From: Botryllus schlosseri
Taxonomy: Eukaryota
Length of the DNA: 64,000 nt
Direction: 5' to 3'
Assembly (NCBI GenBank): GCA_051294905.1
Contig: CM119372.1
Span: 12,278,001 to 12,342,000, forward strand
Positions 22,201-60,585 of the stretch are shown here, in pieces. Each line of letters begins with the position of its first letter. The first letter of the stretch is position 1. Made by a program: the position numbers and the translations under genes. The notes beneath the pieces were generated by a model. It made no database searches and was not told the origin of the DNA. It saw nothing but the letters and a program-made list of their open reading frames with translations.

Positions 22201-22997
22201 GCCGTGTTCCCTTCACTGTCTCTTTTATTTATGTTGTCGTTGTCAGTGACCGCGATTTGCTTCACGACGGATAAATACCCGGACAAACTGGCCAACATCA
22301 TCGACGTCTGTTAATATAGCGTTGCTGTAACTGTAACTGTAGGGAGCTGAATTCCTTGAAATGAATACCTACTTGACCGTTTTTCCTCGATCTGTTCAAA
22401 TTAGCCTTCAAGTGAAAATCGATGTAATTGCATTTTGCTGTTTCCTCTGCGACATCTCTGTGGATACAAACTTTCAAAAATTATTTCCATTTTCGACTGG
22501 GATAGTAAAATAAACGTCCCGAATTATTCCCTTTCATGACTTATTGAATTCATGTTCTGAATACGACAATGGCTGGAAACTAACATCAGATATCGCTCAT
22601 ATCATAGATGATTGTTAAATAATTTCCAATTCGATCGGTATAGCTAAGGAAGCGAGTATAGTTATGTTTTAATTATGATGATTGCACTTCATTGCACGGC
22701 GCATTGGATAAGCGAAAAATCGTGATGTGATGTATGTATTGATTTGGATATCACTGACCTACGGAGATTAGTTAGCTATAATTGAGGTGCGATATCAACA
22801 ATTATAGATTCATCATACAGCATAGGATTGACCACGATAATAATAACTCACGTGGACTCAGTTTCATCATCTGGAGGGATGTTTTCTGGAGATGAAGTGT
22901 TGCTGTTTGGATTTGACCCTTCGGCGCAATGAACATCCATGTCACCTTCATCACAGTCGACAATGACTAGAGTGGCATTGTTGTTACTGTCATTCAT
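10263..22997 (-). CDS. ANKRD33B: ANKRD33/ANKRD33B-like ankyrin repeat protein (~386 aa model)
   Basis: Phase-consistent exons 22997-22852 (ATG, acidic N-terminus), 22457-22373, 22307-22178, 20180-20040, 17025-16868, 16801-16721, 16215-16040, 10506-10263 (stop). Peptide NGQTSMMLASLSG...DSEGNTALMLASQAG|HSEIIRFLL...ENIFGLTALMKTALQG..CARILIVAG|ADVEKRDHGRKYCAYDWALFCG and C-terminal DENHLYVP follow the ANKRD33/33B pattern. Ankyrin exons are strong; the last three exons and possible extra exons are less certain. Confidence 0.7.
10778..12028. mobile_element. non-autonomous hAT element, AGTAGA family, ~1.25 kb
   Basis: TIRs cagagggggtcagta / ctactttgactacctctg; degenerate TSD cgcaaaag/cacaaaaa; near full-length reverse-complement copy at 20799-22019. 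Confidence 0.85.
12708..13302. mobile_element. foldback/palindromic DNA element with ~260-bp inverted arms
   Basis: Arms 12708-12969 and ~13042-13302 are near-perfect reverse complements around a ~70-bp spacer; flanked by the 7-bp direct repeat ctttcac. Confidence 0.85.
13405..13960 (-). mobile_element. second tRNA-derived SINE family, interrupted by a MITE
   Basis: Minus strand reads gtggcgtagtgtgttaagcg (A-box-like)...ggtgcgagccc (B-box-like) and continues across the 13458-13885 insertion. Confidence 0.5.
13458..13885. mobile_element. hAT-type MITE (GGATT repeats)
   Basis: TIR cagagatgagc / gctcatctctg; perfect 8-bp TSD gaaactag. Confidence 0.9.
14169..15806. mobile_element. non-autonomous hAT element (GGAGCC repeats)
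   Basis: TIR cagggttttgg / ccaaagccctg; TSD tctgcaag/tttgcaag. Confidence 0.8.
15408..15485. mobile_element. 78-bp minimal hAT MITE nested in 14169-15806
   Basis: TIR cagtggttcccaac / gttgggaaccactg; perfect TSD gtctaggt; same ends as 49957-50333. Confidence 0.9.
18050..18230 (+). mobile_element. 5'-truncated tRNA-derived SINE (family 1) with (CAA)n tail
   Basis: gaagtggaccgtgctacaagtcgg...ggcctggtgtaaaatgacc...tagtcgaaacacc followed by (caa)n. Confidence 0.7.
20799..22019. mobile_element. non-autonomous hAT element, AGTAGA family (inverted copy of 10778-12028)
   Basis: TIR cagaggtggtca / tgaccacctctg; TSD atagtcac/ctagtcag; internal sequence colinear with the reverse complement of 10778-12028. 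Confidence 0.85.
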
Positions 22998-38112: not shown

Positions 38113-40345
38113 GCCTAGGTCTCTAGGAATAAGGCGTGATCACGCTGGAACAATGTGCTTTTCACATTTTCAAATTTTGGTTGCACTATAAGGTCATCGT
38201 GTTTATGGCGTCACAAAAACACGATGTTGATATAGTTCACTACGGACGTGACGTGTAACATGGTACTTAACTTTACCATTAAAGTCCTGTCAGTCTTCTG
38301 CGTCATTAGGACTAATAAATCCTAATTCCATACGTTCATTTTCATATTGTAAGCAAATAAAACATTTTGCCTCCATAAATTAAGTAATGATGTCGTGCAG
38401 CTGTCGTCATGCATAATATTTATTGCAATTTTCTGTCAGCTTAAAAACCTATATGCGAAGGTATCCACTACGGTCAGTATTAATGTACTAATACTAAAGT
38501 TTTTCCTAGGTACTCCAGTAACAACTTAATATGGCTGTGTTTTTCATTATAATTATATTTCCCGTTAATACATTTTGTGTTACATAATTTTGCATTCAAA
38601 ATATATACAATTCAGACATGGGGCGATGTATCATCAATATAATCGGTTGCGATTACGATTACTTCCGAAATACGATTATGAGTACGGCAAAAATGTCAAA
38701 GTAGTCGATTACGATTACATGGACAAGATAATCACGATTACTTACGATTACATTTATTTTCCTTACCTGAACTTGAGCCTGGAATGCATATAAAAATAAC
38801 GATATACAATATAACGATCGCGATTAGACTGCCTAATGATATAATATGTTTTGGAAAACGTGACACTAATTGCTTGTTAAGTCAAAATATATCAGTTGCC
38901 CAACTTTGTAGCTGACGATTCGCTTACCCAAAGATTTTCATTTTTGCTGCAACCTATGCTAACATGGTGTATAATGACGGATCGATGGCGGCAGGTAGAG
39001 TAAATGATATCGAGGTGACGATTGGTGCCCGTTCCAAGTATGGCCATTGGCCATAGGAGAAAAAGATGAAATGTAGGCCTACATCAAATTCTGCAATAGT
39101 GATTAGTGCTTCTCGTCGTTGAACAAACACACGTATACCTACTAAAGACGTACAGGGTCTTGATTTTGGATTCTCAGTTTCCATGTTACGGGATTGGGTC
39201 CGGATTGACATTTATCGCCCGAGTGCCGAATCCGGACAGGGCCGGATTCAAAATTCCCAGTGCATGGAAGTGGCTTTCTATTTGTTTGTTCCGATGTTTT
39301 GTATGAACTTCAACTCGACAGGTTTATGTATTGTATTACTATTTCGATAAGTCCGCAATAGCAAAATTCAATGCAGTGGTGAACAGACATGGGGTGATTA
39401 CTTCACGAATGTAATCGATTGCGATTACGATTACTTGTGAATCCCGCGATTACGATTACGATTACGATTACAGCAAAATCAGGAAGTAGTCGATTACGAT
39501 TACGATTACATTTCAAATGTAATCACGATTACTCACGATTACATCTGTTTCCCTTCTCGAAGAACTAATTTCAGAAGACATATTGGAAGACAATATAAGG
39601 CTTGCGATGAAAAGGTCTAATGAGATAACAACTTTCTTTATATATCATACGTCATTTGCTTGTTACGTCATAATGTACCCATTGCCCAACTCTATGCAGG
39701 ACTATTCGTCGCACCCAACAATTTGCATTCTTGCCAGGTCCGTAACTGCAACACCCCAAACTCACCAATAGGACCGGAAGCGAGCTCCAAGGGGACTCAA
39801 AAGTATTTCGTAAATCAACATAAATTATTATAGAGTATTTTCAAGAGAGTTTATTTACTTGAAAATTTTCTTCGAGCTTCGGGATTTGATGTCTCTAAAT
39901 AGCTTGATTTTGAAATGCATACCTCTCCGCCCCAAGAAAAAAAAGCATGCATAATTTATAGGAATAGGCATTTCGGTGTCAGTAGCCGCGTTCTGTGGGC
40001 GTTACGAATAGTCCGGTCCTTCCAATCTGAGCCCCAACAATGCAAATACCACCCACAGAGGAGTGAATACAAAAGAATTTGTGTGTGCGTCTCACGAAAG
40101 TTTTTTTTTAATCTGCCACGTTTGGGCGACTACAGTATCTTTTGATTATATAAAAGACGGGAGGTCACGAATTAACAACATACAATAAAGTAATTATAAC
40201 AACATACCAGATGCTATAGTTATGAATTAGGTGCCCCAGCTCTACGGGTAAATCTGAATGAATAGCAATATAATGCAATTACCAATATTATTGACGAAAT
40301 TAAGTCATCAACTTGAACACTTACACCCTATGAGGCCCCAATACC

Positions 40346-40881
40346 CATGGTTGTAATGACTCGAGTCCAACTCGAGTCGCGAATTTTCGGTGACTAGACT
40401 TGACTCAAGTCATATTTTTAAATGCGTAAATTGACTCGTTTCGAGTCAATTTTTGTATTGGCTCGGCATGTACTCGATTCATTTTGGATGACTCGAACCA
40501 AGTCATATGACTCGAGACAGACATTCCATGTAACTTCGAAGAATAGTAAAGTTATCACATTATTTGTAATTCGTCTATCAGTTCTGATACTTGGAAATAG
40601 CGCCGTAAACTGTGAAAACTGATGAAGATTACTATATTATGAATACGAGCCATTTCATATCACTCAAGCAGAGTTGGAAAAAGTGGGTTCAACCGGAGAG
40701 ACCTGAAAACTGATCTCTGAACATAACGACTTGGACTCGTACTCGAGTCAAACACTATGACTCGGACTCGACCCTATGCTAGCTGACTTGGACTCGGACT
40801 TGACTCCGGGATGAATTGAAAATGACTTGACTTGACTCGAGTCAAGACTATAAAAGTGAGATTGACTTGGTTACAACCCTA
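40346..40881. mobile_element. hAT MITE with GACTCGAGTC repeats (inverted copy of 26525-27119)
   Basis: catggttgtaatgactcgagtc / ggttacaacccta; degenerate TSD ccaatacc/tcaatatc. Confidence 0.8.
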
Positions 40882-40964
40882 TCAATATCAACGTTTGGAG
40901 TGGAGGACGAATTGCTGTTTTGGTCCTGATTGTACCTACCTACAACCCACGCTAACATGGTGTC

Positions 40965-42545
40965 CAGGCCTGTTTATTTTTGGATATTTGGTTTTATTTT
41001 TGGAGATTCTCCAAAAATAAGATTTGAAAACATCCAAATATAAGCTTTTTTTGGATGATGTTTTTTCAAGTTTTTTGATGAAATGCATGAGTCAGAGCAG
41101 TGTAAATACTGTTAAAACAACCAGGAAACTCACAAACACACACAAAAACAGCATGTGTGTGCGGGAGGGGGTCTCCGAAACGCTAAAAGTACTTCCACTT
41201 ACTGGAAGGATCAGAGGCGACACGACAAGGGTTAAAGAGGCGGCATGGTATGAAATCGTGCGAGTGTGGTGCGGGCGGGACCTTGTGACGTAGCCCGAAT
41301 ACCGCCACCTCTACAACAATTACTTCGTCCACACGATGATGGGACTGAATGGCTACCTCCAACGGCAACAGGACTTGATCCAGGAAAAGAAAAGTATGTG
41401 CCCCAAGTTTGTAGACACATGTTGGTTGTCAATTAAGAAGATGACCACTTGGTTGACTAGACACCGTACCAAACTCCTCGGGGTTATAAACGATAAAAGT
41501 CCGGCCTGTGCACCTCCGCTGCATTGGTGGATCCAACTTATCATCCTCGAGCGCATGGCCACAAAGCTGAGCACTACCGTCACAAAGATTCAGGGACTTG
41601 GTCATCTGATCGTGGAGCATCAGGATGAGCTCCATCGCCTGGTCGAACGCCTTCGAGCTCGGTGTCCGCTGAGGACTGGGACAATGACACCTGCGGCAAG
41701 GAAGGTCCTCTGGTCAGAGGGTGCTGGACTATCAAGTTCAATGAGTCACGCAATTTTGTGGAGGATCAGAGTGTGCACTGTGCAGTCCTCGACCTTCTCG
41801 AGAATATCGACGAAGAAGAGAAGCAGTCCACGTTCGAGGCAGCCAGGATCCTTATAATAGCAGGGCTCATCGACGGCATAAAGAAAATTGAAGTTGCCGA
41901 CAATGAAAGGGTTCTGCCCTGTCTACCACATCAAGTGGTGCAACCTCGTTGGCAGGACAGAACAAACACTTCTTGCTCTTTTAGATTCTAATAATATAAA
42001 CAAGAGTGATACATATATGTAAGCTACTTCATTTGCAGCTCAGTGAATTGATCGACAAACACCGGGGTGAGCTGTCGAACAAGTGGACACCAGAGCAGAT
42101 ACAGAATTTCGAAGACCAATTCATATCCATGTCTGTCTGATACAAAATGGACGTCACTTTCAAGCGCATTATTGACGAGCGACAGTTCTTTGGACCCACA
42201 TGGCTCAATGTTTCCCACAACTGCGAAGGTCGAAGCCGATTTCTCGAAAATCAACTGGGAGAAAGGTCTCTACCGGGCGTCACCAACTGATTTTTATTTG
42301 GATGGCATTCTCCAGGCCAAAGACTCTGTGACGAATATTAGACAGTTAGATCAAGATCACTGATGATGTCGATGTGTTGAAGAACATGAATACATGATAA
42401 TAACATACTTTCGGTGAAGTTTTCTATGTAGTATTAGGGCTAAAAACACCTTCATTTCTTATTTTTGGAGAATCTCCAATTTGAAAACATCCAAAACTAA
42501 GCTATTTTTGTTATTTTTGGAGAAATCCAAAAATAAACAGGCCTG
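40965..42545 (+). mobile_element. hAT-like transposon with a frameshifted, partially deleted transposase
   Basis: TIR caggcctgtttatttttggat / atccaaaaataaacaggcctg; relic ORFs VRVWCG.DLV, GLNGYLQRQQDLIQEKKSMCPKFVDTCWLS, PACAPPLHWW, FPTTAKVEADFSKINWEK...TDFYLDGILQAK; no clear TSD. Confidence 0.8.
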
Positions 42546-43562
42546 TGTATAACTGGAGGGCTATGGTGACAGGTATAAATGTCGACTGAAGAATTATGAA
42601 ATAACGATTGGCGCCCGTTTCAAGTAGAGTCATATGAGAATAAAATAAAGTGAACTTAAAATTCTACCTTCCACTTAATACAGATACTGCAAGCTGCCGT
42701 TACGAGAAACTCCAAGAACGTCTCCAAAGAACGTCTCGGTTATGATATATATCAGCAGCTGTTGATTTTAACCATCGTAATGTTTTATTTGACGAGTACA
42801 AAATTTCACATCTTTGTCCGGTGTGCGTACAATACATACGCATACTACATAGAGAGGCCTACTGCTCGCCAAGCAGCAACGGTCAAACTGCGTTTAACTA
42901 AGCATAACCAAACAGCAATACATAAGTTATTATTTGAAACTAGGCAGAGTGGTGATTAGATTATTATCTTGCGGCGAGGTAGTGGCGTCTGGTGTGTATT
43001 GATAACCTGATATACAGCATGACTTACACTGTTCTAACAATCACAAAACAATGTACATCGAATATATATTTACTACGTGTGGATACCTCTTACGCAAGGA
43101 CGAGCAAAGCTAATACTTCTGACGTAACAATGAGCAGTGGTGTTTGGAAATCAACCGTTTGCGCTATCAACAACCTGGTATAATATCTCTTCCTTGTTCA
43201 CGAATGTTCGGTTATGTCATATTCATTGTACAAATAAAAAGTAATCGTTCTCTCACAAATAAATCGATTAGATATGTGAAGTAGTCGATTACGATTACTT
43301 TGGATTTTTTTCGAATGTAAACGATTGCGATTACGATTACTTGAAAATGCTGTAATCGTCGTAATCGATTACGATTACCAATCGCGATTACCCCATGTCT
43401 GGTGGTGAGGTAAAAGAAAAACGTCGACGATACGGGCAACAGATGCTGAGCCCGAAGCAAGATGCTTTTGGATCCGGATTTTAATATTCAAGACGTTACG
43501 TCTTATGGAACAGGATTAGATCCATATCCAGAAAAACTATATGATACGTACATCTCTAATCT

Positions 43563-43936
43563 TAGGCTTACCATATTTTGGAAATCTAAAAAGAGGACAC
43601 TTTTTCAGAAATTTGAGACTTGCAAACCCGGAGAAGAATTCTGAAAAATCGGTGAATTTTTCCCACTTTGTGATCGGTTGACTAAATAAATAAAAAAAGG
43701 TCAACTTTCGGCTCGGAGCTCAAATCACCGTTTTTCACTCCGAAATACCCGCCGGTGCGTCACTTCTATGCTAATTTACGGCATATCACTCGCATTTTGC
43801 TCTAAATGTGACCTAAATTTTCAAAAAAGAGGACAAAATCTCAAAAAAGAGGACAAAAGGGCGTCCTCCGAGGACACTTTCAAAAAAGTCAAAAAAGAGG
43901 ACAAATCCTCTTAAAAGAGGACGTATGGTAACCCTA
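43563..43936. mobile_element. hAT-type MITE (AAAAGAGGAC repeats)
   Basis: TIR taggcttaccata / tatggtaacccta; flanking direct repeat ctaatct. Confidence 0.8.
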
Positions 43937-44340
43937 CTAATCTACCTACTACCCATCGAATACAGATATTGCGAGCCTCCGTCACGAGTAACAAACAGAC
44001 TAAACTCGCTCTTGATTTTATTAATAACCGAGAGTTTACAAATCCGATGTTCCTACCACCAATAACTTGGTACAACGTAGCCTACTATTCCTTTACAAGT
44101 ATTTAAAAATGCTCAGTTTATCTCATAGCTCTCGTAATCGTTCTTTTACAAAGAAATAGATTATATGTTAAATAAATCGATTACTATTACTTCAGATTTT
44201 TTCGCATTTTATCGATTTATATGATTCGAAAAAGCTGTTGTCTTTGTAATCAATTACTATTTCAAATCACGATTACCCCATGTCTCATATATAGTCCATA
44301 TATAGTCTATAGACCTCCCCTTTCAAGTTTAGACGTGAAG

Positions 44341-44696
44341 CAGTGATTCCCAACGTGGGCGATGTCGCGTACAAACGGGGCGATAGGGGACGAAAATATT
44401 AGAACGGCTATATGTAACTAATCGGCACGAAATGCACGTGAAAACGGGTTGTTCTGGATCTGCCTCGAAAGTTGACTAACAAAAGGTAAACTCTCACCGA
44501 TTACACGTGGAGACGGGTCTTTCGGGAGTCATGTCGAAAAATTGACTTTTTTAGTCAATTCACCAGCGAGCAGAATTTAGTGGTATAAAATTCCCCGTTT
44601 ATATATTCTCTTTTTCGGTTCCAAAATATGGTGGGCGAAGATTTGCGTAGAGTTTGATAAAGATGCGATGATCCGAAAAAAGGTTGGAAACCACTG
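44341..44696. mobile_element. degenerate hAT MITE (cagtggttccc family)
   Basis: cagtgattcccaacgtgggcgat / ggttggaaaccactg; TSD eroded. Confidence 0.65.
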
Positions 44697-45177
44697 CCCT
44701 AGAGACAAACTATGAAGTCGCTACTTTGAAGTATAATTTTACATTGCTCCAACTGCTTCAACTGGGGTTAATCAATGACCGCATCAGTTGACCATGCAGC
44801 TCTGCATGTGCGCATTATACATATACATCGTGCCTTACCACATTTTTCCATGATAATCAGATGAAAGCATATGAGCAGTGTTCCACTTGATGTTCATTTA
44901 TTCTAATCGCGCATTTGATAAATTAACGACGCATTCTGAAACGCAGATATCCTTCGAACCCATACTCATCTATGTCGACCAATCTCCGAATTACTGCATG
45001 GGCCACATTAAAAGGGTATATCGGGTAGACTATACTAAGGGTCGACGATGCAGAACCACCGCAAATTACCTGAACAGCTGCAGCCATCTCTGTTGTGGTC
45101 GTGGGCACACCACGACCTTCATCCAACGGGGAGGATGTGACTGTACCTTCCATTGGTGCTGTATTGTTACATGCGAG

Positions 45178-45599
45178 CAATGTTCCCTCTAATTTTTCAC
45201 GCGGCTGCGCGCACTCACCAACTCACTACGCGGTCCATTTGACGACCGTGCGTAGCATAGGGATCCGAAACAGAGGACAAAGTGTGGACTAAAAGAGGTC
45301 AACACAAAGGATTTACCCGCATTTTCCGGTGATGTGTGGTGTTGACTAAAAAAAAAGTCGTCACTTTGTCTCGACTCCAAAATTTGACTTTCGCTGCGTC
45401 GGAATCGAGTTTTTCGTCACATTTTACTATAATTTCTGAATTTTTACATCAAAAATGGTCGTCAGTTTGGTCTGATGATCATCAGTGCCTTCTGCGAAAG
45501 ATATAGTGATATTTTTTGTGCACGGCAAACATTTTTCTGTGCGCGGCGACTTTGTCGGCAGTGCGAAGCCGCATACGCGCGTAGTTTAGAGGGGCATTG
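45178..45599. mobile_element. hAT MITE inserted in the last Wnt exon
   Basis: TIR caatgttccctctaa / ttagaggggcattg; perfect 8-bp TSD catgcgag (45170-45177 / 45600-45607). Confidence 0.9.
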
Positions 45600-45879
45600 C
45601 ATGCGAGGAATGCGAAAAGAAATTTCAAGGCCAGTCTTGCCTCTCAGCCATATCCCCGAGAATGCTTCATTGCATGAAGATGTTATGCGGATGTGGACAA
45701 GATCATTTGATAGGCAAAATATGTTATATAGTCATCCTATAATCTCGGTCGTCATCCCATCTCATATAGCTTGGGACATCTGATTAGCGATTCAGCGAGC
45801 TTTCGTTGATCCTTCAATGGTGCCTTTTATAATTATAATTGTCTAGATACCACCTCATGTCATTTCACACATTGTATTA

Positions 45880-46845
45880 GGGGAGATGTGGTACCGATGG
45901 ATCACTGGGACCGAAAATACTTGAAAAATTCTCCATGATAATTCCATGATTACACTCCGTGAATTTGTCTACAATTACATGCTGACAGAATCTTTCCTCG
46001 CATGCAAAAAAATCGACCCGCGTAAGTTATGGGGTCTGTGACGAATGATTTACGTTTTAGGGGGTGTAAAGTAAATTTGGATCGACATTTGCATTTTTCT
46101 ATATCACCTGTCAGATTAACAAACCCGCCATAATTTTTGATGTGAAGTATAGGGCTTGTATCAAGGTATATAATGGCACATATTTTCAGAATCAATACCA
46201 TCCTCGAGTGGACTATTTTCAAGTCAATTACAATATTTATGGGGTGGGGGACCTATGGCACCATAGCCAAATCAAGCAAAATAAATGGACCAACTAATCA
46301 CTTAACGATAGAAACTCGCCTACATATATGTAAGCTGTAAATCATAGTTACCTGTGGCGTTTTATCGCTATTACGAGGTATTTGAAAGTCAAAATGTCGA
46401 TTTGCGGGTAATATGTACGTGGCATTAATTTTGTAAGTTTAGGCGTAAATCAAAACATGATTTTAGGCCAACATTTGAGTAGATATAATCTATTTTATTC
46501 TTGAAGGTCGCGACGAAACATTCTTCATTGGCTTGCTGTAGCTTAGCTGATAGTACGCAACAAAACAAGTTAACCAATTTGAGTTTTTGAGCGTATGTCT
46601 CATAGGTCCCATGGTCGTGAGCCTTTGGGCCCACCGGGTGGGGACCGATGACACGTTCGAGCAACAAATTTTAAACGTTCATGAATATTTTTTGAAAAGG
46701 CGGATATTCATGTAAATCTCCGCGATAGGTAGAGCTTGTATCGAAGTGTTGAGACAGCAAAAGATCCGCTATTCTCGGCTGAAGTTTTGAGGGCCAGAGA
46801 TCATTTTGCAATTTTTGATCCGATCCATCGGTACCACATCTCCCC
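45880..46845. mobile_element. non-autonomous DNA transposon with TA TSD (Tc1/mariner-pogo-like)
   Basis: Perfect 24-bp TIR ggggagatgtggtaccgatggatc flanked by TA on both sides. Confidence 0.8.
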
Positions 46846-49800
46846 TATGCTTTAGTTCCGTCTTGACTTATTTTACATGCGCTGACAATCATGATTATTA
46901 GTAGAACTTTTTTGCCCATTCTTTCTTCTGCAACCTCACCATATAGCCTAAATAATATATTAGTGATGTCATATCTATAGCCATCATCCATTTACGACTG
47001 TACGTTATTCTTCCTTCGAAAACATAAGATAATGCGAATGTTCCACTTTACTACAAATTTCCCATTCCATTCATTTTCATGGGGCAAAAAAATCATAATA
47101 CCCTGAACTACACTGCGAAACATATCGGTGGAATTCGTTTAAAACCCCAAAGAAACGAAATGCTCCTATTTACAACTCGCTAATGCACATGCAATCTCAG
47201 AAAAATTATCATTATGACACATTTTGAATACACGTTATGTTGGATTTTGTAAATCCGGTCAAGATGCAAGATAAACTGTTTATGGATACCCTTGAAGACA
47301 ATACTCGAGTCGACCAAATGTTTAATGCAGCTCAGTCTCCATGCATGGGTGCCTCTTAGTGATTTTATCTCGTGAATATATATCTTGCATACAAATATAG
47401 CAAACTGTTGAGCATTCTATGTGATGCATTACTGCACAGCACAGTGTACAATGCACATAATTGTACATGCACACAAACGAACCAAATATTGTATGTTGAT
47501 AGTATTTTTTATCATGCGACAAAACACTATAAAAACATTCATCAAACAATCGAAGGGCCCAATTTTAATTAAATATGTTTTAAATGTATTTTCATTTTAA
47601 ACGCAACCATAGATGGTGCAAATCTCATGAGTTGTTTTGTGGATTCCCCACCTTAGGTATGATTTCCTATCAAGCCGGCAACGCGAAAAAAGATCCATAA
47701 ACGACAATAACCAATTCAGTTCTTCCCACCTTACACATAAGGGTGAAATATATACTATTGGCGTTGTGAAATAGTTTGTATCAGCTAAAAATGGGTGTGA
47801 TTATACTCTAATAGACACAGATGTAATAAGGCATTCGTGTTAACAGTGACGTTTTCCATTAAAAGTTCGAAGTTCAAGAAGTCATGGTATGGTATGGAAT
47901 GGGAAATTTGCATACTCCATACCCGTGTCAATCGTTCCATACCATATTATACTTACAATTTTCCATACCATACCAATATTCTTTCATCCATACTATATTT
48001 GATACTTTTTCCGTACTTTCGTAGTTATCTATATTTTGCTCGAATTTAATACGTTCGGGTAGGGTTGTCTCCTAACAGCATATTGGCAGCCTCAAAATTA
48101 TCTTATTCCTAGGGCAACTTTTTTTTAAACTTCCGGCAGCTTCCTAAATACTCAAAAGTTATGTAGTATGGTGTTTTTAGCTGTTTGGAGGAATCATATA
48201 TTGCAAATTATTGCAACTTTTCTTCATTTTTTCATGCAACTTTTTTCAATTCTTTTCGATTTTCCATGCAACTTTTGCATGTATTTTCGATTTTTTATGC
48301 AACTAACTTTTAACTGGAAATATTTGGCACTATATGTAAATAGATCGCTTGATTATTTCACTATAGTTTAAATTTGAGGTCCTTTCTGATTTGACGTAGG
48401 CTATATTCAGGCTAGACCACCGAAAATAATATTTTCACTGGCTCATTTTTTTCTGGCTATTGATTCTGTTGAAGTCGCTAATATTAAGTTTTGCTACAGT
48501 GCCTTGGATACGGAACGATTCGAGTATATCATACTCTAATGATTTCAAGGAACTTGTCCGTAAAATGCTCCTTTTTACTGCAACTTTTGTGAACAAGAAG
48601 TGCAACTTTCCGCGGATTAGACTGCAAGAAAAATTTGCCGTACATATTACGTATGCTTCTACTCTTCCGGTACGGTAGCCTATATCTACCACCCGGAGTA
48701 TATATGCCTTATATAGCCGTTGACTGTTAAAAAATAATAATGACCTAGTTCGCCGCCTTGCATCAGATCCCACATTGTATAATGTCCTCACAAAGATCGA
48801 TATCTTCAGATTGATGGCACTGCATTAGCAAATGTTCCCAGAGATGGCAACTACAGGTATTGTGATGACGTTTGAAACGAATGCCGGAAGTCGCATTCAC
48901 GTGGCTGAGCGAACAACGCCGTCAGAAATTCTCGGAACAATATTATACCTATTATCATTATCTGATACAGAAAAGTCAGACTTTGAAAACACGACGCGAA
49001 CCGCGGCTCTAGGAAGTAGACATTCGGAAAGCAGAAAACAAAATGGATCTGACGGTAAAGCGTCATAAAAAAGGAGATTTGGAAAGCTTCCCGGGCCGAT
49101 GACAAAATTCTCGGTTGTGTCTAAGATTTCATATAGATTTTAAGCAACCACGATTGATCCGTAATTGAAAACGTGACTGGCTATGAAGCCAAGACCACTG
49201 CGATGACTCTTTTTGATTACTAATTTTGCATACTGAATTAGATTTGCTACCTTCGGAATGATGTCTTCGTTGATCGACCAACTATACTCGATAGTTTGTT
49301 ACGCCCGGTGGCGCTATATAGCCGATAGAGTTTGATAGATCTGCCGTAAGTTATCCTAACTGCTTCTTGATATCCCCAAAGATCACACCACACTATACAC
49401 TGCACAACACAGCCATCTTCCTGGCGCCTTTCCTGTAACCTGAGCCGCCGCTCGACAATCGACAGCAATACATAAATCATTTTTCTTTATTTTCGCTGAG
49501 CACTAATCTGACGGATTGCTCGATGACTATATTGAAGAAATGAGACGTATGTAATGGGAGGAGCCCAGATGAAACTCACATCTTGTATTGTTGAAAGTGA
49601 TTACTGTTGTTTAAATATATCAAAATATAGATATGCTGGTTCGCATTAGTTAGTCTTGAATTTTCCATACAATACTACAAATGCCTTACTTGGCAGTCAC
49701 ATGAATGGCTTGGAATTGCCTGATAGTGATAGTAAGCCTACTGTAGAAGATCCCGCAGCTGCGATATAGAGGCAATTGTCACATCGACTTGGACAAGCAC

Positions 49801-49956
49801 GAGTGCACTGAGACAAACAGCGCTATAGCTATGTCACAGAAAGAATTTATTGTGAACCTATTTGACAATATAGTTGTACTTTCGTATCGGAAAACGATAC
49901 ATATTGAGCAAAGTACACTTCATGATTTTCGGTATAATGTTGGGTAGAGACTAGAG

Positions 49957-50333
49957 CAGTGGTTCCCAACCTTTTTCGACTGATCGCCCCCTTTTCAAGC
50001 TCAACGCCGATCATCGCCCCCCAGATTTTGTGAACTGAAAAATCGGTATACAATCTGTAATCATCGGCAGGTTGACTAAAAAAAAAGGTCAACTTTTCGG
50101 CTCGCTGTCGAATTTTACCCTTTTTCAACTAAATTTCCGTGGGTTGACTAAAAAAAAAAGGTCTTTTCTCCTACTTGACTCAAATATATCCGTTTCAACG
50201 CATCATCGCCCCCCTATCGCCCCCTTCGCTATTTTCGCCCCCTTTGTCCATTTTCGCCCCCTTCGTCATTTTCGCCCCCCTAGGCCGCCAAATCGCCCCC
50301 TGGGGGCGATATCGCCCACGTTGGGAACCACTG
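49957..50333. mobile_element. hAT MITE (CGCCCCC repeats)
   Basis: TIR cagtggttcccaac / gttgggaaccactg; perfect TSD gactagag. Confidence 0.9.
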
Positions 50334-52284
50334 GACTAGAGAGAGTCGCCAAAGCGAGTGTTGTCTCCAGCCTGCCAATTGGAATCGGCATCTTTATAGC
50401 AGACATATATACAATTCCCATTGAAATGGGACTGTCAAGTATTTGTTATCCTGTACTGTTTATCATATTGGCGGAGAAAATATTATGATAATAAAAGGAG
50501 TCGTGGTGAGGAAAAGAGTTTGGGAGGCCATGATCTTGGATGCTCGATGTAAATTTTTACTAGCACACCCAACACGAATGACGGACTGGTCAGTAGTTAA
50601 CGGTACAAATCAATGTCCAAGAGCATATCGGAGAGCCCACAGTGACACGTTATGTTGCTACCTGTTAGAATGACAGATATACGTCACCTGATTTGAGTGC
50701 GAGTATATGTGATGATATCAGACAATACACAAACTGAAAAGCAAGCGAGCGTGGTATTATGTCATACACGAAACCGAACCGCACACGTCACACATTCTGT
50801 GCCGTCCGTAGTATACGCTTGCGAAACTATCCGAATAACTTCCCTATACACGAATTTCAATCAGCGCTTAGACTTAGACTTGATATCAATGCGATGTCTG
50901 TCTTTTCATACCTTACCGGTACACCGGCATAACACGGTATAAAACTAACGGACTGCATAAGCAAGTTGTAAATGATGAGAATTTATTCAAATTTCGGATT
51001 TCCATTATGGAACAATGCAGAAAATGTGTCTGTTTCTCTGTCACGTTAAGGATGAAGCATCAGGCAGTTTGCAAAAGCGCAGTAACAATCAATTACATCA
51101 ATATGGCGGAAATCTCTTTCCCAGAATAGCTGGCGGACTAAAAAAGAGGGCCGTCAAGTATATCCGGGCGATTTTGGCAACATTGAGCCGCAATCGGAAC
51201 GCGCGCAGCGAAACGGTAGTGAAGCCTCGAAGCCACGAAAGTTTAAGAAAATATCAAGCGATACTGGAATGTGAAACACGAGTATACATAAAGAAATACA
51301 TATATAGATTCATATACCCTTTCATGGGAAGCATATAGTTTATAATAATATGATTTATTAATTCCAAACTAAAATCTCATTGCTTCAAAGAATACCTTAA
51401 AGACGCGCGAAAAGTAGCAAAATGGTAACGGAAATACTTGTAATCTCTCGTGCTAATGACGGAAAGTGAGTAAATGGCACGGAACGCTGAGACATATTGA
51501 CAGTCGACAACTAACTCACAGAATTACATGTTTCGCCGGGCGAAACCTGTCGCATACCACCACATTTGATCCCGTTGAACCAGCGAGAGCCCGATCGAAG
51601 ATGTTACAAAGGCGGCAACAACGCAGATTCAACAAACCAAAAGTATCGATATATAGACAGAGCTATGAACACTATCCTCTGACATTGTGAATCATAGATC
51701 TAACCACTTTATCTATATAGTTGAATGCGACATAATTAGCTTTGCGAATCAGGGCTGCGTGGCGGACTTCAGCTGCGACCACAATTGCCCACAGTCATTG
51801 CAATACCGCGAATGCAAAGGCAATGGCATCCGCACTGAGGGCATACTCCATTTTGTATTTGCTATTAATAGGTACCGGTAGCGACAGATCGAAAGTACGA
51901 TACGAGATTCGCAAACACACTGCGTCGTTTCAGATGAAAGCAGCACAAACAAGCACGGACGGGCACGAAGATGCTATCGGCGATTACAGTAGTAAATCGC
52001 TAGGTCCGTGGTATACTGCGATGATATAATATATGGTGTCTTTGTACATTGTACATAGATTGCACAGTGAAAGCCGTCCCAAGTCGCTCGAATAGACCGT
52101 CACTGTCTAGAATGCACAGTGAAATGCCGCGACTTGCACGTACAGACCTTTGCCCCCATCTTTCAGCCACTCGGAAGACTCGACATGCATTCACTCCGAG
52201 ATAGAACGACTGCGAAATGTCGCAGTGTGCCGTCACACTCCAGTGACGACGTTTACAACAATGTTGAAGACTGTTGCCTGGTAA

Positions 52285-55200
52285 TCACGGATTTCCCGCC
52301 ATGTACGGGCTGTACTGAAGACGATTTAGTTTAGCAGATCCGCTGTTACTCGGTGACGAAGCAGGCGTGGTGTTGGTACTTTTCGGACCGAATGTGCCTG
52401 TGGCCGTTCGCGGTGCCCTCGGTCTGGCTTGGGGCCTCCGACTTCTAGCGCCGTCGGTACGAACCACTGTAAAATAAAACACCGCCATCATATAACTGTG
52501 TCCCAATGTTATATTACACCGTCGCGGCATATCATGTTACGTGAAATCGTATGCTACAGTCAACGCCGTCAACCGTCATGGATATTCGTAGCCTCGCGAT
52601 ATTATAGCTTCTAAGAGAGGAGAATAATTTGTCCGTCGCAGAATATATAAACCACTTTTATGAGATATCAAGTCAAGGCCTTCGGTGATATATATACTTT
52701 AGTCATTTCAGAAAGGTAGATTTCAAAGCGTGCCGAAGGCTACGCGGTTGCCGTTCGATATCGCATGATATGCCGTTAGGGGTGATTTGTCTGTCGAAAA
52801 TATTCCCTATGCAACACTTAAATCAAATGCGGCCGAGCGAGGAAGTTCATTTCGATGACGATCGTAATCTAGCCGTTAACTACGTGTACCTCTTTAACTG
52901 CGATTCTGTTTATACTTTATGACGTTTTCACACACCGATAGAGTAAGTTGTTATTCCCATTGACAGCAATAATCCGTAAATTACCGATGTCGCGCAGTAT
53001 AAGGTATAGTTTTGCGGCGACGTAGACATTAAATATAGTGGAACTATCTCGACGAGAAGGGCTGGTGCTTGTCGCGGATGCCTTCAAAAACCTCAACTTA
53101 CCATTTTTAATCATTCCTACGGCGATACACTTTTGGTAGCGGCAATACGGGCAGTGTGTTCTTGTCTTCTTATCGATGGGACAGTTCTTGTTGCCCAGGC
53201 AGACGTACTGCGCATTCTTTTGCACGGATCGCTGTGAAAAAGTACATACAAATGTTGAAGCTAGTAGATTTATCGAATATTTATAGCGCACGGTATATCC
53301 AGTCGCCCTGTCTCTTGTTGCTACCAAATAAATAAATGAGAGTGTCGTATACCTTGAAGAAACCTTTGCACCCTTCGCAAGCCAAGACGCCATAATGCTG
53401 CCATCTGGCTTTGTCGCCGCATACCGCACATGAGCCTTCTCCGAATCCACCGTAGCTCAGGTTTGTCGAACTGGATTGCACGGATCGCGAAGATACAGTC
53501 TGTAACGCAAGTTTCCCGTTAAATAAACCTTAATCTGAAAGGGCAATGTGCGCAGTTGACTATGTATAAAATAGATACGCCGGAAAGCGACGTCTCAGTG
53601 CGGAAATATACAAGAACCGCAGCTACCGGTATTGCCCGGCAAGCTCAAGTTACAGTCGGTTTGACGAGCGACTTGATGGCATGCATGAACTATAAACATA
53701 TCTACACGACGGACTTAGGTCGAAATTGCAATATCGCAGTGATCGCATCTAGAGTGAATTCATTTTACGGACACAGGTCGACCCGCATGTTAATCCGTAA
53801 TGAATTTCGCTATTATCCGTTACACATGTCAACAATTCCGTGGTAAGAGGGTGTAGAAATAATTCATCCACAATTTGCTGATAAATATTTGGTACAGTAA
53901 CGTATAGTAATATGAAAAAGGTACGACGTAGTACCGTGCCGTCCCTAACAGCATTCCGTTAACTCGCTGTATACTGTATACCTGGCCTAGGCTTCTAAAA
54001 TTTCCTGTCGCGCGCGAGCACATCTGATTGATCGTGTTGGGTTTAGCTTCCCGCCAAAAGTTTTTCATCGACTCGTAGCAATTTTCCGACTCGCCGCCGG
54101 TCACCTCAAACAGCCCAACCTCCTCGACCTGACCGCCGTCAACCTCGGACAACACCTCGGACATGGCGTGTCGGAAGTAGTTGGACTTCGCGTCGCTGTC
54201 TTCGCCGGCGTAGCGCATCGTCTCCGGTGCGTTCTGCGTTTGCAAGTGATCGATTTGCACTGCCGGGTTCGGTCTGTGGTCGAACACGTCTCCTGGATCT
54301 GATATTGAAGAATTTCGCTTTTCGTGAGATATGGTGACGTAGATGCGGTTCGTAGTGATCCCGTTCCTCTGACCGGCGCGATCCGACGGATGGACCCGGC
54401 TTTCGAGGTTTTCGATCTCTAACGAGTTGGACTTCACCAGCGCGCTGCGAGAAATTTTCACGGCCGCGCCGGCACTGTCGAAGCCAGCGAGCCCGTCGTG
54501 AGATATCAGAGTATGAGGCTTCCGGTAGAATTTGCGTCTCTTTCTCTGTTCTTTGGGCGGGAAATTGGACGCGATCCTGGGCGGAGCCGAGCGGAATATC
54601 TTACGCGCCTCCTGTCGATTTTCGAGTTTGATGTTTGAAGAGTCTTTTACGGTGCACAGTGAATGCGATACGGAATGAATCAGTGTTTTGTTTCGCAAGC
54701 TTCCGCGTGAGGTAGTGGGTCCGTGGTTTATAGCGGTAGAGTCCGTCTCCGGTTTGATCCGCAGAGATTCATAACGGGATTTCGAGCCTATCCGGAAAGC
54801 GTGCGAGTCGCTACTGATGGAATTCGACGGCGACATATCGTCCAGGTCAATGATTACATCCTCGCCGCCGTTTCCCGCCAAATCCGAATTGGGTGGATCC
54901 GCGGTCAGCGACAGCGGACTTTCGGGAGAACGATTCGATTCGCTGGACTGCCCGCTCGCTATTACGGACTGCCTCATCTGCGTCACGCCGTTCGGGAAAA
55001 AGTCTTCGATGTCCTGATTGCTGTCGAAGTAAGTCGATATTGCGTTGTGCGACAGAGATTTTGAATGGACTGAGTGCTGAGTGTTTTGGATTAGTTCTTC
55101 GTAATGAGACGCAGACTCGTATTTGTCTTCGTAGTCAAAATTTGTACGCTGGCCGCCGTAATACGGCTCGGGAGTGGCGGGTGAAGAGTTGTAGTGCTGG

Positions 55201-57806
55201 TAACATTTTCCGTTGAATAACAACGGGTTGTCGTCTTCAGGAGACGTAAAATCGGAAGGAATGGGGTATTGCTGATCGGAGTGTTTCAAAATCTGCGAGG
55301 GCGGGGTGGCAGACGGGGCTGGGTCATTTTTAGCCAGATTCCACTGCGGCCGGATACCAGGTGCGGCCAGGCTGACATCTCGCGCATGGCGGTGCAACCT
55401 TCTGCTGTAACAGCTGTTGGGGTCCACACCGTGCCCGTTTAGGTCGGGCATGAGTCGCACGCCGGCACCATCTGAATAGGCTACCGAACGGATGACAGCA
55501 TTCGGACTGCCGCGTTCTAGACGCACTTCCCTGTCCAAAGGACCGACGATGTGTCGCTCAAACATGGAATCCGATACCCCGAGCTCGACAGGGTCCATAC
55601 CGAGTATTTCCATAGGCATTGCGTAATCACTACCGAATCGGGAAATACTCTCTTTCTGTAAGACATCGGGCGAAAGCGCCCTGCCAGAGTTGAAGCCGTA
55701 GTTAGGGACGAACACCGGCGGTGAGCCATCATTGCTTGCGGCTCGCGTGAAATAGAGTCGGCTCATGGCTTGTCACATGCGATCGACTCTCTCTAGCATA
55801 CGGCATTCTTCAATTTTCCAATCAGAGAATTCTCATCTATAGTCTAATCGTCTTTCTACAAACGAACATTATAATGTATATGTCATGATATTTAGGGTAA
55901 TCTGCGCGCCTGTGGAAGTTATGAAAATCTACACGCATTTGAAACCTGCACTTCGCCGTGACACGCGCAGACTTCCACAAAAATCTTGCACGAAAAGAGA
56001 TTTTCTCTCAATTTCGTAACGATCAAATTCCTCAAGATTTCGCTGGTAATGAACATTCGCTTTGATTTTCGACTGTCTACTACAGACCTACTAACTGCAA
56101 TAGTGTTTGCAACGTATTCATGGCACTTCGTCAGTTGCACATGAGTAATATACCCTAAAATCGCAGACGTATAGCACCACGGTTCGTTTATGCCTCCATG
56201 TCCGAAGCCGGTATGATATCGTGTAAGACGCTTCGCCTGGACTGCTGATTATGAAGGAATTACGCCCCAGGCACGCTGCTCAGTCGACCGTATTGCATTA
56301 TTCTTCACCAGACAGTCCAGTTTTTCACGTTCAAGTTGGCAATATACGGGAGGTATGCGGAGCTATTTTACGATTTTAAAGTTGCAATAAAATGCATTGC
56401 TCTATGGTGCAAATGAATATAGTAACATTTCTCACCTGTCGCGGCACCTGTCCTGATAGTTGGCCCGGATTGCCGAACATCTGATGTTGCACCCCCGACG
56501 TCTGCAAACCTGCCGTTGGTGGGGTTGAAGATAACCCCGATTCACTCCAATGACTCAAGGTAGGAAAACTTGCGACTTTTCTCCTACTGTAGTTACTATC
56601 CGGTGTCATGTTGCAGCTATCAGTCACTTGGCAGTGATGCGTCTTTGGAAAGTCGTAACCGACATTCTGGTATCCATGAATGGTCTCGCTGTTCGGGACC
56701 TTGTTAATGGAGGAGAATTCGTTCGTGGTAGGAAAGTCTCTCATCAAGAATTCTCCCGCATGGGAGTACTCCGGCACGGCCTGCTGAAGCGGCTGTGGTT
56801 GATAGAAGGAGACAGCCGAGGGAAACTGTTCGGACGCACCGCCTTGCGGATACGACTGCCCGCAATAATTGTTCGTCTGGTGGAATCCGGTCGGAATAAA
56901 GTTGTAGGATCCTGCACGAAAACAACATCGGCTTTTATAACGTTGTAACGTCGCCTGGTAAATATATATAGTTATATACGTACCCTCTGTGTCTCGCGTC
57001 ATGGCTGCAATAGGAGTTGTTTCGTGGAAGTCATTCCTTTCGATATGCATTGCAGGTGATGTGTTTATCATAGCATTCCAAGACGCCTCGTCCCAACTTG
57101 AACTATGGTGACCAATATTGACATCTGACGCGCTAAAACTGTTGTGTCGACTCCACTGCATGTTGGAAGTACTTTGTGGTGATGGGGTATCCTGGCTTCT
57201 AAGCTCTTGTTCGGTGAGTTGCGGAAGGCTGGCGCGCCGTTGGATATTATCTACCATGGCAGACGTAAAGCGAGAGTCAGTGATAACATTCGAGGACATG
57301 GACGATGTCAGAGACGAGTCTGCGTTAAACGAGGTTAAGTCCAACGACGGAGCACAAATAAGTTCCTGCATAATTTGATTTTCCGATATCTCCGGGCTTG
57401 CGAAAGGAATTTGACTGTGCTTGGTACGCAATGGAGACGAATCCATAGACGATTGAGAAGATTGAAGTCCGTAAGAGCCCTCGCACGCTGCAGTCCGTGG
57501 CGAATCGCTGGGTCCGTACAGCTCCGATAGAATATCTTCCGCGTCGACTGCCGAGCTTTCTTCCCACCAGTTGATGCCAAACGCTTCAAAATCCAACGAC
57601 TGCGTCTTTGGAAAAGAGGCGACAACCACGTTACTGTTAGGCCCGACGACCGATTCGCTGCGGTCAAAGCCGGCCGCTCTGGCGTCATAGTGGGACGAGT
57701 GATTCAAGATAGTATTGTTCGGTTCTTTATTGTCGGCGGTCAAACTCATCATAACAGGACGGGACAGTGCGGTTTGGTGCTGCATCATAAGTGCGCTCGA
57801 GCACAT
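52285..57806 (-). CDS. NR4A: NR4A-like (Nur77/Nurr1/HR38 group) nuclear receptor, isoform A, with no ligand-binding domain visible
   Basis: Exons 57806-56984, 56911-56436, 53499-53353, 53231-53102, 52466-52285 (TGA), phase-consistent. [100 protein letters not shown] and VVRTD are NR4A signatures. Confidence 0.85.
53982..55766 (-). CDS. alternative 595-codon N-terminal coding exon (isoform B) of the NR4A-like gene
   Basis: Uninterrupted GC-richer ORF from gccATG at 55766 (in-frame TGA just upstream) to the phase-0 donor CAG|gtatac at 53982, matching the phase-0 acceptor of the first zinc-finger exon (53499); candidate acceptor tttgtag at ~55856. Confidence 0.75.
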
Positions 57807-58437
57807 GTCCTGCCGCAACAAAAACGAAACGAAGAACGTATAAGATGAATGTAAAAGGCGAAATAAAGGACAGGGCTGCGTGCAAAAACAACTATACATG
57901 AAACACTCAAGCGGTGATAAATAGAACTGAAAATTTCCGCGATTTCGAATTCGGCATGCAAGGACCCTCACATCTTCACTCATACATACAAACTTGATAG
58001 AGTTTCATTCATATTGCTGGAAATAATTTACATGTGGCAAGGTTAACCACGTATACTAATTATCATAAGAAGATAACGAAGAAATACAAAAGGAATATTT
58101 AATTTAACCCAATGTTAATTAATGATATTCCGAGTAGGTTGCAACGTCGCAAGAATATAGTTGATGTACGGTACCACGGAAGATGCATAAATACATTATG
58201 CGATAATGCCCGATAATCTTTTCATGCGTGTTGCTCTCAGGATATATATATTATATGTTTCGGGAGGGATGGAATTCTCCGCCTGCTGTCCAGATGACTT
58301 TTAAATGCAGATTTGACTAACAACCGGGCACGACTAACTGAAGACTTTGACGGGCTTATCAACTATCTTATAACGTGGGACGTAATATCGAATGTACGCC
58401 TATGCTTCAACAGTGCGTAATAAAATGCAATGCTTAC

Positions 58438-58860
58438 TTCTGTTGTGTATTGTAGCTGAAAGAAGTAAGATTGTAATCCCTTCCGTAATCCTTGACGACA
58501 ATAAAGTAGTGTAGATGCGAGAGAACGTTGAATACTCTTCCTCAGTTAGCTGCAGATATACCTTCGTACAAATTCTATCTCATCCGGGTATAGTGCCGCA
58601 GGCGTTATCCCGTCTGTGGAATGTGAGAGAATCCCTGATTTATATATCAGCGTCAAAAATTCCTGCAGTGCGTAGCACTCTCGAAACCCAAGAAAAAATG
58701 GTGCGTTGCGTCGTCGACGTCAACGCAAACAAAGAGTCCTTCCGCGTCTCGGGAAGAGAGCTGTACGTAAAGTACGTTCTATTTTTGCGTTAGAATGTGA
58801 CGACGTCGGATATAGCTGCTACTATAAATAAAGAGAAAAGCAAATTGCGTCATATGCAGC
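58438..58860 (-). promoter_or_regulatory. putative NR4A-like promoter and non-coding first exon
   Basis: TATATAAAT (minus) 58647-58639; CRE half-sites TGACG/CGTCA at 58651, 58718, 58798, 58848; MEF2-type CTATAAATAA 58822-58831; donor AA|gtaagc at 58438. Confidence 0.55.
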
Positions 58861-59075
58861 GGTTTCGGCGGTATGCATATAGAATTGCACCGGCTAACTC
58901 ACCCTACAGGGTTGGTGCGACTGCGTACACAATGAGTACATAATTTGAAATACAGATTTGGATTTACCCGGGACCGTTCTTATTGTGCTTGTATCGACTG
59001 GCCTACTCCGACACGCACACCCATTTGAACGGGTGTAAATAAGTCAAATACATCAATTCTTGTGGAAATATATAG

Positions 59076-59162
59076 CTGGGGTGTAGTGGGTTCTGCTTTA
59101 GGTGCACCACCCCAATAAATCCAAAAAGGTGGTACACGCAAACAGAACCAACTACACCCCTA
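59076..59162. repeat. short imperfect inverted repeat (hairpin)
   Basis: ggggtgtagtgggttctg..gtgcaccacc / ggtggtacac..cagaaccaactacacccc with a ~16-nt loop. Confidence 0.7.
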
Positions 59163-60585
59163 GGATATATAATATCCGTAGGATTGGTGTATTTAACTAA
59201 TTTTCACCTATTGTAGAGGTGTGAAAGTACAATTTGATACCTGAAAGTAGCCTTAACGTGAATTTATGGTGAAAATCTGATAGATACACCCAATTTCCAC
59301 CCATCGATTTATAGTGTATAGCACCTGTTTTGATTGCATCTGGTGATTTGTTTAGGTAATTTAATGACTTTTCCAAAGGTCCATCGCCCAATTGCCTATA
59401 TATTAATGCCTCTATGTTATTTCAATCGGGCGATCATGTGCGCTGCACAGATTGGGCAGCTGCGCAGGCAGTTAGTCTATCAAATTATCGATTAACTGCC
59501 TTATGCAGATAATATACTTTACGTCGCTGGTCTGTGGAGTAAAATAGTATCTGTTACGTGCCTATTGCGTTGATTTAACTATTCACGTGACTTCACGTTT
59601 TAGATATGTCGCCTTAGTCACGGACACTGTACATGAAGGCAGCCATAAATAGTACGGCGGATCTGGAAGCTTCTGCGGAAAATCTCGCAACGCATTCATT
59701 TATGAAATAGCAAATTCCAGCGGCAATTACAAAGTATTTCGATATTCTCAAGTTTCGAGTGATATTTATATTTTGTTAGATCTTGCTAGACAAGTATGAC
59801 ACTTCATTTATCAAACCATTTTATGACCTTCGGCCGCGCTAGCTACCATGGAACTTGGATAGAAGAAGATTGACATATACCCACGTGGCGGACATGAGTT
59901 TACGAAGTGTGAATCACCCCATGCTTTTACGACATTGCGTTGCAGTCATTTAGTGAGTGGCCGCGTTTAGAATATATTAATAGCTTGCTATAAAAAGTTG
60001 CATTTAGGTACATCGGACGCTGGATTTAGCGACAACATGTTACTCAACCCGTTAAAGATAGCGATCCACATCGATAATTGAGCACAAGGTCCGGACAGCA
60101 ACAATGCAGCATTGTCTATTTTCGTCATGTAACAAGTGATATACAAGCCATACATGGAAATTCGTCGATATATTGATACACAGAGTTGAGGTATACGGGC
60201 ATACCCAAACCTTAATTTATAAACGATACGTAGAAGAAACCTACAAGTAGACGGATGATTGTCAAAATACATTGGAATTTTCATGAGTGTGATTTGCATT
60301 TCATTGATAATAATTATTCACGGAAATTGCAAACTTAGTATGGTTCATTTTCACAAAATTAGCGGCAATAACACGACCGCTGTTTCGGATACTTTTTAAC
60401 ACTAGTCAACAATGTTTAACATGAACGCGATCGAACCCAACCTTCCGGGATTAGCATTTCTTGAAGCGCAATGGCGTCCAATTGTATTATAGTACTATAA
60501 TGGGGATGGACAAATTCGCATCGCGGCCGATCAGAATCTGAAACTGAATATTTTCTCAAACCCAATCGATTCAACACTTTTCAAT

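Follow-up and report, generated by a model that had tools for sequence, protein, structure and literature searches.

A tunicate-wide, NR4A-derived nuclear receptor with two alternative N-termini and no ligand-binding domain

Receptors of the NR4A group have an atypical ligand-binding domain (LBD), and what share of their activity requires this domain is a standing question. Nuclear receptors with a DNA-binding domain (DBD) and no LBD are found in the NR0A group, which includes knirps, knirps-related, eagle, and ODR-7; knirps has the P-box CEGCKS and carries its DBD at the N-terminus. Truncated vertebrate NR4A splice forms keep the A-box. This element (GRRGRLPS) is important for monomer binding via the minor groove, and gene regulation by TR3 did not require the LBD in the assays used (PMC4695184, in part); recruitment through AF-1 by Nur dimers and NR4A activity via AF-1 on dimer sites are described elsewhere (PMC3844937, in part). 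In Nurr1, the major-groove contacts are made by E281, K284, K288, and R289 (PMC9894219, in part). The splice variant NURR2C is a dominant-negative form of NR4A, and the NR4A2 promoter is of the CRE/TATA type (PMC12471074, in part). As for chordates, the parts examined of a review list the NR0A group, state that chordates lost their NR0A genes early, credit Ciona with 17 receptors, and do not mention the tunicate receptor described below (PMC7827873).

The gene analyzed here is located within a 64,000-nt stretch of Botryllus schlosseri DNA (the window, to which all positions refer; features are on the minus strand unless a strand is given). It is real, expressed, old, and constrained, and encodes an NR4A-derived, DBD-only tunicate protein with two alternative N-termini. 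Present in a single copy in the assembly (495.5 Mb, 219 contigs), it begins near 58620 and ends after the AATAAA at 50987-50982. A sequence-only reading had placed the receptor at 52285-53499, which is the right locus but includes the last three exons only, and its gene model overlooked the two N-terminal coding regions. The product belongs to the nuclear receptor superfamily, with an eight-cysteine double C4 zinc-finger DBD and PF00105 matches above the cut-off on both finger exons; the intact zinc cysteines and CEGCKG P-box of that reading are indeed present. Exon C (53353..53499) encodes the YGGFG pre-finger motif, zinc finger 1, and the P-box (PF00105, E 2.7e-11), and exon D (53102..53231) encodes zinc finger 2 (PF00105, E 6.7e-16). 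The coding part of exon E (52285..52466), delineated by splice signals and the Styela orthologue, provides the T-box VVRTD, a basic stretch without an A-box, a short tail, and a TGA. All three exons are bordered by AG/GT and yield an open DBD, past which the frame continues for 63 residues before it stops. The 3' UTR of about 1.3 kb (50982..52284) is defined by a pile-up of reads and by a contig of read set X1 that is unbroken from 52366 to 51058.

Upstream of exon C, there are two alternative N-terminal coding regions, which result in products of 585 aa (form A) and 747 aa (form B). Form A starts at ATG 57806 in exon A1 (56984..57809, located by tblastn with Styela clava isoform X2 and bordered by AG/GT) and continues in exon A2 (56436..56911), whose predicted acceptor coincides with the end of an X1 read contig at 56912; the intron between the two is 72 nt long, and the reading frame is kept whether or not it is spliced. 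Form B starts at ATG 55766 in exon B, for which 53982..55766 is the extent of the coding part, located by tblastn with S. clava isoform X1 and by the homologues P0001-P0006, and not a mapped 5' border. Both forms terminate in phase-0 donors compatible with exon C. Starting from residue 1, form A is 30% identical to S. clava isoform X2 over 287 aa (tblastn, E 9e-23), and form B is 34% identical to isoform X1 over 290 aa (E 6e-29). Isoform records with either A or B exist in three genera (Styela, Ciona intestinalis, and Clavelina), these isoforms being partly predicted models. Two other arrangements of A and B were considered. The phase would permit a single N-terminus of 1,100 aa combining both, which we set aside because the Styela, Ciona, and Clavelina records contain either region, never both; assignment of A and B to a separate upstream gene was rejected, given that the Styela isoforms matched from residue 1 by both regions run on into this DBD.

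Homologues of form B exist across ascidians, and the exon B query retrieved six proteins, one of which is the product of S. clava LOC120341980. Within this region, the short motif H-x-x-x-[RQ]-D-V-[SN]-L-A (55356..55403) was identified in 17 of the 285 collected proteins, all of them form-B relatives, whereas none of the form-A or Oikopleura proteins that we examined contained it; it is a candidate cofactor-binding motif. Both N-termini are predicted to be disordered, except for a pair of helices predicted close to where form B ends (54003..54080), which the alignment shows to be kept in the closest relatives. In the Styela model, this pair (residues 562-586, pLDDT 71-76) is the sole confidently modeled part outside the DBD, and it has no known look-alike, with the ESM Atlas returning nothing. 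Across genera, form-A N-termini displayed no similarity above z 3.5 other than between the window protein and Styela, so that the equivalence of form A between genera is drawn from position. Several peculiarities of this region were also observed. An in-frame ATG lies 11 codons 5' of the form-B start (55799-55766), with its frame closed by a TGA at 55775-55773; in the relatives P0002 and P0003, the 11-residue extension is open, and in Botryllus this ATG may now belong to a short upstream ORF. The form-B proteins P0001-P0004 and P0006, predicted on contigs, stop just beyond the exon B donor, inside the intron; either these contigs are DNA, or the intron after exon B is often retained. Inside exon A1, an X1 contig (57357-57672) reaches a depth of 540, about 10 times that of its neighbors, although this sequence occurs just once in the assembly. 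Eight bulk reads, which have two starts, lack 121 nt bounded by GT..AG on the plus strand (56044-56166), between exons A2 and B, possibly representing a spliced antisense RNA.

The 5' end of the gene consists of a predicted non-coding first exon (58438..58620, 5' end approximate) with a GT donor at 58437 and a TATA upstream; spliced reads for this exon were absent among the 15 of 40 joints listed. The read depth of the single-cell run X22 drops from 4.06 to 0 beyond 58676. A motif scan of the putative proximal promoter (58638..58900) identified a TATA at about 58646, a MEF2-consensus site at 58831-58822, and CRE half-sites at 58651, 58718, 58798, and 58848; at least four CRE half-sites occur in 11 of 1275 overlapping 250-nt windows. 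This set of motifs resembles the CRE/TATA promoter of NR4A2, and the signal was strong in the runs from dissociated cells, the samples differing between runs. Together, the promoter motifs and the high dissociated-cell signal provide a hint of immediate-early induction, and we give such NR4A-like behavior of the receptor gene a chance slightly below even.

The DBD combines strict conservation of the NR4A base contacts with a distinctive set of losses and replacements. All 14 family rows retain the P-box CEGCKG and the residues equivalent to E281, K284, K288, and R289 of Nurr1, and R312 and R319 are equally invariant (14/14), as selection for DNA binding would predict. When exon D was compared with the PDB, the four best matches were NR4A2 and NR4A1 DBDs (E 1e-18 to 8e-17), with the next families starting from 2e-13. 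The A-box, by contrast, is gone: RRGRL is present in 82 of 83 NR4A cores, compared with GRRGR in none of 33 signature proteins, and the T-box is followed by an unconserved basic stretch or, in three members, by nothing. The replacement of GRRGRLPSKP by a different 10-residue sequence, noted from the Botryllus letters alone, accordingly holds as a conserved loss of the A-box, but the particular replacing sequence is not kept in orthologues. The Akt-site serine within the A-box (S351 of TR3) disappeared along with it. Furthermore, A271R, C272W, R278L, T279A, and T290S are found in 14/14 family rows, Q316P in 13, and R314H in 11, with R311T among the other replaced basic residues of finger 2, and the first cysteine is preceded by YGGFG in 11/14 rows. 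In the homodimer patch (residues 294-300), V298 is kept in 9/14 and L300 in 10/14 rows, the five most divergent rows not keeping it. The model of the Oikopleura orthologue fits nuclear receptor DBDs with an rmsd of about 2 and has a pLDDT of 74-91 across the DBD, the pre-finger being unresolved at 10-residue blocks; the Styela protein model has a mean pLDDT of 44, with helix 1 unformed, and the ESM Atlas returned generic DBD clusters only. A fast-evolving subgroup (P0027, P0039, and P0281) ends 9-10 residues past the DBD while retaining the form-B motif, and represents a minimal version of the gene.

In the reading that we favor, with a probability of roughly 0.65, the receptor would be a DNA-binding factor acting through its N-termini. 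The tunicate-wide single-copy gene ('NR-like') of which this is the ascidian member derives from NR4A, with loss of the hinge and the LBD, and its product would be a ligand-independent, sequence-specific transcription factor in which helix 1 still reads an AGGTCA-type half-site. Since the minor-groove A-box is gone, the NBRE would be bound poorly by the monomer; a site preference different from the NBRE is somewhat more likely than not. Affinity would probably be gained from paired sites or partners, by means of the retained finger-2 dimer patch, the YGGFG pre-finger, and the fixed substitutions. As both AF-2 and an LBD surface for RXR are absent, the disordered N-terminus would be the source of all output, and the use of either form A or form B would set which cofactors are recruited; induction by stimuli, as for NR4A, is possible.

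The same DBD features bear on two other functional readings. The protein could be a built-in competitor that occupies NR4A/AGGTCA sites, or pairs with NR4A via the DBD, and dampens NR4A activity, an idea that draws on the identity of the P-box and recognition helix to those of NR4A, the presence of a canonical NR4A in the same genome, and the precedent of dominant-negative NURR2C (PMC12471074, in part). We nevertheless consider it unlikely: without the A-box, the NBRE should be bound less well, at least seven positions are fixed differently from NR4A, suggesting a job of its own, and two long N-termini, one of them with an ascidian-wide motif, exceed what a passive blocker would need. Alternatively, the zinc-finger module could be mainly a protein-binding surface, the receptor being a tethered cofactor that hardly binds DNA directly, consistent with the replacement of basic residues in finger 2 (R311T and R314H), the C272W change, the new aromatic pre-finger motif, and the three members that end 9-10 residues past the DBD. 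The invariance of the four base-contacting residues of helix 1 and of R312 and R319 in all 14 rows speaks against this reading, which we consider quite improbable.

The evolutionary origin of the receptor was addressed by comparison with its paralogue and orthologues. A separate canonical NR4A, which the sequence-only reading had suggested looking for, was found on contig C5, with a canonical DBD, an A-box, and four post-DBD exons; of all other sequence in the genome, it alone matches the window gene at the DNA level (two finger exons, 75-77%). The existence of this LBD-containing gene makes the window gene a paralogue, and the proposal of an LBD-less NR4A paralogue beside a canonical NR4A is supported by the PF00104 and profile searches, the C5 gene, and the trees. 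A DBD search of protein relatives scored 1196 candidates, and the top 12 of the best 120 listed constitute a separate group with PF00105 only. Orthologues without an LBD were identified in six tunicates (S. clava, Phallusia mammillata, Ciona intestinalis, C. savignyi, Clavelina lepadiformis, and Oikopleura dioica), along with five further, more divergent members. Beginning at YGGFG, the window protein and S. clava share an uninterrupted run of 83 identical residues, and within a 66-residue core, Styela is identical at 66/66 positions, four other tunicates at 60-63, the canonical NR4A at 50, and an RXR-type gene at 40. The window protein carries the signature ARW-x-HYGVLAC, found in 33 of the 285 collected proteins (isoforms included), has the short tail of the tunicate 'NR-like' orthogroup, and falls into its single clade. 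What had been treated as a new local finding thus proves to be an old tunicate-wide gene that is already in the databases.

In both phylogenetic trees, the tunicate family formed one clade (support 100/100) positioned within NR4, with support of 99/94 in the 58-row tree and 94/97 in a 37-row tree from which 24 of 61 rows had been dropped as near-duplicates or long branches; the comparison comprised 78 columns and few outgroups, with no knirps sequence among the rows. Three AU tests were non-significant (p 0.48, 0.37, and 0.19), so the place inside NR4 is not fixed by these 78 columns; joining the family to the RXR-type row was not rejected (p 0.19), and the tests on duplication timing gave no result. 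Derivation from NR4 is nonetheless supported at the sequence level by the 50/66 core identity to NR4A compared with 40/66 to the RXR type and by the same intron positions. In both the window gene and the canonical NR4A, introns occur in and after the DBD, in phase 0 after FFK and in phase 1 before the T-box; the first of these positions is also used by another receptor of the genome (L029). From the species distribution, not from the tree, we infer a tunicate origin of the family. The family could instead predate tunicates, being sister to all NR4A and lost in other animals, and monophyly of NR4A without the tunicate family was indeed not rejected by the AU test (p 0.48); we judge this scenario rather implausible, however, because all members with an assigned species among the 120 hits listed and 7 more are tunicates (five members being unplaced), the amphioxus and vertebrate proteins among the hits listed are canonical NR4A, and the family is nested among NR4A rows in both free trees.

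The absence of the LBD was evaluated at several levels. As originally noticed, the receptor ends after the DBD, with the stop 63 residues past the zinc fingers. Genome-wide, PF00104 yielded 23 matches, none near the receptor locus and, as a check proposed earlier, none downstream of the DBD. A profile of the NR4A hinge and LBD, built from 112 NR4A post-DBD sequences, was run against 4153 six-frame segments covering the window, 10 kb on each side, and the C5 gene as a control locus; it matched all four post-DBD exons of the latter (E 4e-27 to 5e-19), and no other segment, be it from the window, its 20 kb of flanks, or the control locus, fell below E 1. A full NR4A query against the genome recovered high-identity LBD exons on C5 only, with no orphan LBD exon of the NR4A type. 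The window contains no N and lies inside a 40.6 Mb contig; of the three observations that could have overturned the original proposal, namely splicing into LBD exons, a PF00104 match, and an assembly break, none was made. Among the family proteins, Pfam detected no LBD in 17/17 scanned, the NR4A control P0100 showing both domains, and the longest post-DBD tail in 32 signature proteins with the full DBD pattern is 105 aa. The Styela orthologue aligns to exon E and terminates there too. Past the T-box, exon E resembles the canonical NR4A exon no more than shuffled sequences do (129 of 500 score as high), and this comparison supports neither a leftover of LBD helix 1 nor translation across the ancestral splice donor. 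Tail similarity exceeds that of shuffled sequences for the window protein versus Styela only (2/500). The tails of the window protein and of its ascidian orthologues finish in a loose aromatic patch, with Q/H followed by Y or F residues. Overall, we regard the identity of the gene and the loss of its LBD as virtually certain.

Transcription was assessed by mapping four runs over 40001-60000, of which X21 and X22 are single-cell and X23 is bulk. In the bin 50673-51339, depth by direction was 132.3 versus 0.4 in X21 and 39.9 versus 0.76 in X22, compared with 3.62 and 2.25, respectively, in the next bin upstream. The direction of the pile-up matches minus-strand RNA, provided that sense-strand sequence comes from the second mate, as is the case in 3'-tag libraries (the chemistry of the runs is not stated). 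The region is single-copy, and no A-rich tract was found near the pile-up. Both of the AATAAA candidates pointed out earlier are real (51359-51354 and 50987-50982); the far shallower coverage of the next upstream bin indicates that the distal one, at 50987, is the main signal, the proximal one being apparently little used. The 3' end accounts for an estimated 88 and 27 reads per million in the two single-cell runs, and the receptor gene is nearly devoid of reads in the bulk run X23, this contrast being one between different samples from different studies. The C-D splice is present in reads of X21, X22, and X1, and a 1329-nt X1 contig spans the stop codon unbroken; X1 contigs also traverse the interval 56435-53500 unspliced, and this read set may contain DNA or pre-mRNA. 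The D-E, A-C, and B-C splices were absent among the 15 of 40 joints listed and are deduced from splice signals and Styela proteins. That the LBD exons lie farther off or are missing from the assembly, or that the locus is a truncated pseudogene, is exceedingly improbable, for although the unlisted D-E joint, the unspliced material in X1 (which makes the contig across the stop no proof of mature mRNA), and the near lack of reads in the bulk run could be cited in its favor, there is no LBD remnant by PF00104, NR4A profile, or full NR4A query, the 3' pile-up is stranded, the 83-residue identity to S. clava coexists with N-termini that are 30-34% identical, and the same truncation occurs in six species.

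The surroundings of the gene and the other receptors of this genome yielded further observations. A Wnt gene on the plus strand (exons 35985-36143 and 44932-45186), divergent in sequence, is convergent with the receptor gene and ends near 45190, about 7 kb downstream of it. An ankyrin-repeat gene has exons at 19867-20193 and 22023-22310 on the minus strand, and the segment 41294-42360 (plus strand), with broken reading frames, many repeats, and no Pfam match at E 0.01, is perhaps a decayed transposon. At least 10 receptor genes on contigs C2, C3, C12, C13, and C15 (L004-L008 and L010-L014) have an uninterrupted DBD with a short D-box, by which motif we take them to be PPAR-like; several encode DBD and LBD in a single frame, and the group looks like an expansion of apparently intron-poor copies. 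In the RXR-type gene L001 (C14:8394504-8395409, minus strand), the DBD and LBD share one open frame of 550 aa, and the coding region therefore seems intronless.

Records of the same gene include the Phallusia mammillata 'NR-like nuclear receptor' (CAB3264439.1), the Ciona intestinalis 'nuclear receptor' (NP_001071780.1, BAE06595.1, and FAA00109.1), S. clava LOC120341980, Clavelina LOC143468248, and Oikopleura dioica g6999. They share the absence of the LBD and, in three genera, the two N-terminal forms, with strongly divergent N-termini and tails. Being already in sequence databases, and labeled 'NR-like' in at least one record, this is not a new gene, although the records contain no functional description and do not name an NR4A origin. 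We found no paper describing it, and a 2003 survey of Ciona receptors may mention it; its origin, conservation, and isoform switch seem to be undescribed so far. The parts of tunicate expression papers that we consulted mention NR4A without showing which paralogue is meant, and 'NR4A' in such studies may denote either of two genes. As a natural deletion of the LBD under strong constraint across tunicates, the receptor constitutes a natural experiment on the purpose of this domain, and it allows one to ask whether a new N-terminal DNA or dimer contact offset the loss of the A-box. Knockouts, reporters, and SELEX are routine in Ciona and Oikopleura. Tentatively, and at somewhat less than even odds, we propose an undescribed chordate receptor group in which NR4A was duplicated at the base of tunicates and one copy, giving up both LBD and A-box, acquired a novel pre-finger motif, a different DNA site, and two effector domains selected by splicing. 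It would be a stimulus-induced factor with its own targets, conserved in larvaceans as well as ascidians, and the DBD-only form would thereby have originated independently a second time, in the phylum whose NR0A genes are stated to be lost.

With canonical NR4A (NGFI-B/Nurr1/NOR-1, HR38), the receptor shares the P-box and helix-1 contacts, QHYG, the T-box VVRTD, both intron positions and phases, 50/66 core residues, and the grouping of the DBD. Unlike canonical NR4A, it has no LBD, AF-2, A-box, or Akt-site serine, shows fixed changes at positions 271, 272, 278, 279, 290, 314, and 316, and possesses the YGGFG pre-finger and two alternative N-termini. Truncated vertebrate splice forms such as NURR2C likewise consist of an N-terminus and a DBD with the LBD cut off, and are reported to have reduced or dominant-negative activity, but they are isoforms of a full gene, whereas the tunicate loss resides in a separate gene and is fixed across the subphylum. 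With the NR0A class, the receptor has in common a DBD and no LBD; in contrast to knirps, with its CEGCKS P-box and N-terminal DBD, it carries CEGCKG in 14/14 rows, has its DBD in the last 150 residues, and groups with NR4. Given that NR0A was lost early in chordates, the tunicate receptor looks like a separate route to the DBD-only architecture, indicating that such receptors can arise again from a different subfamily.
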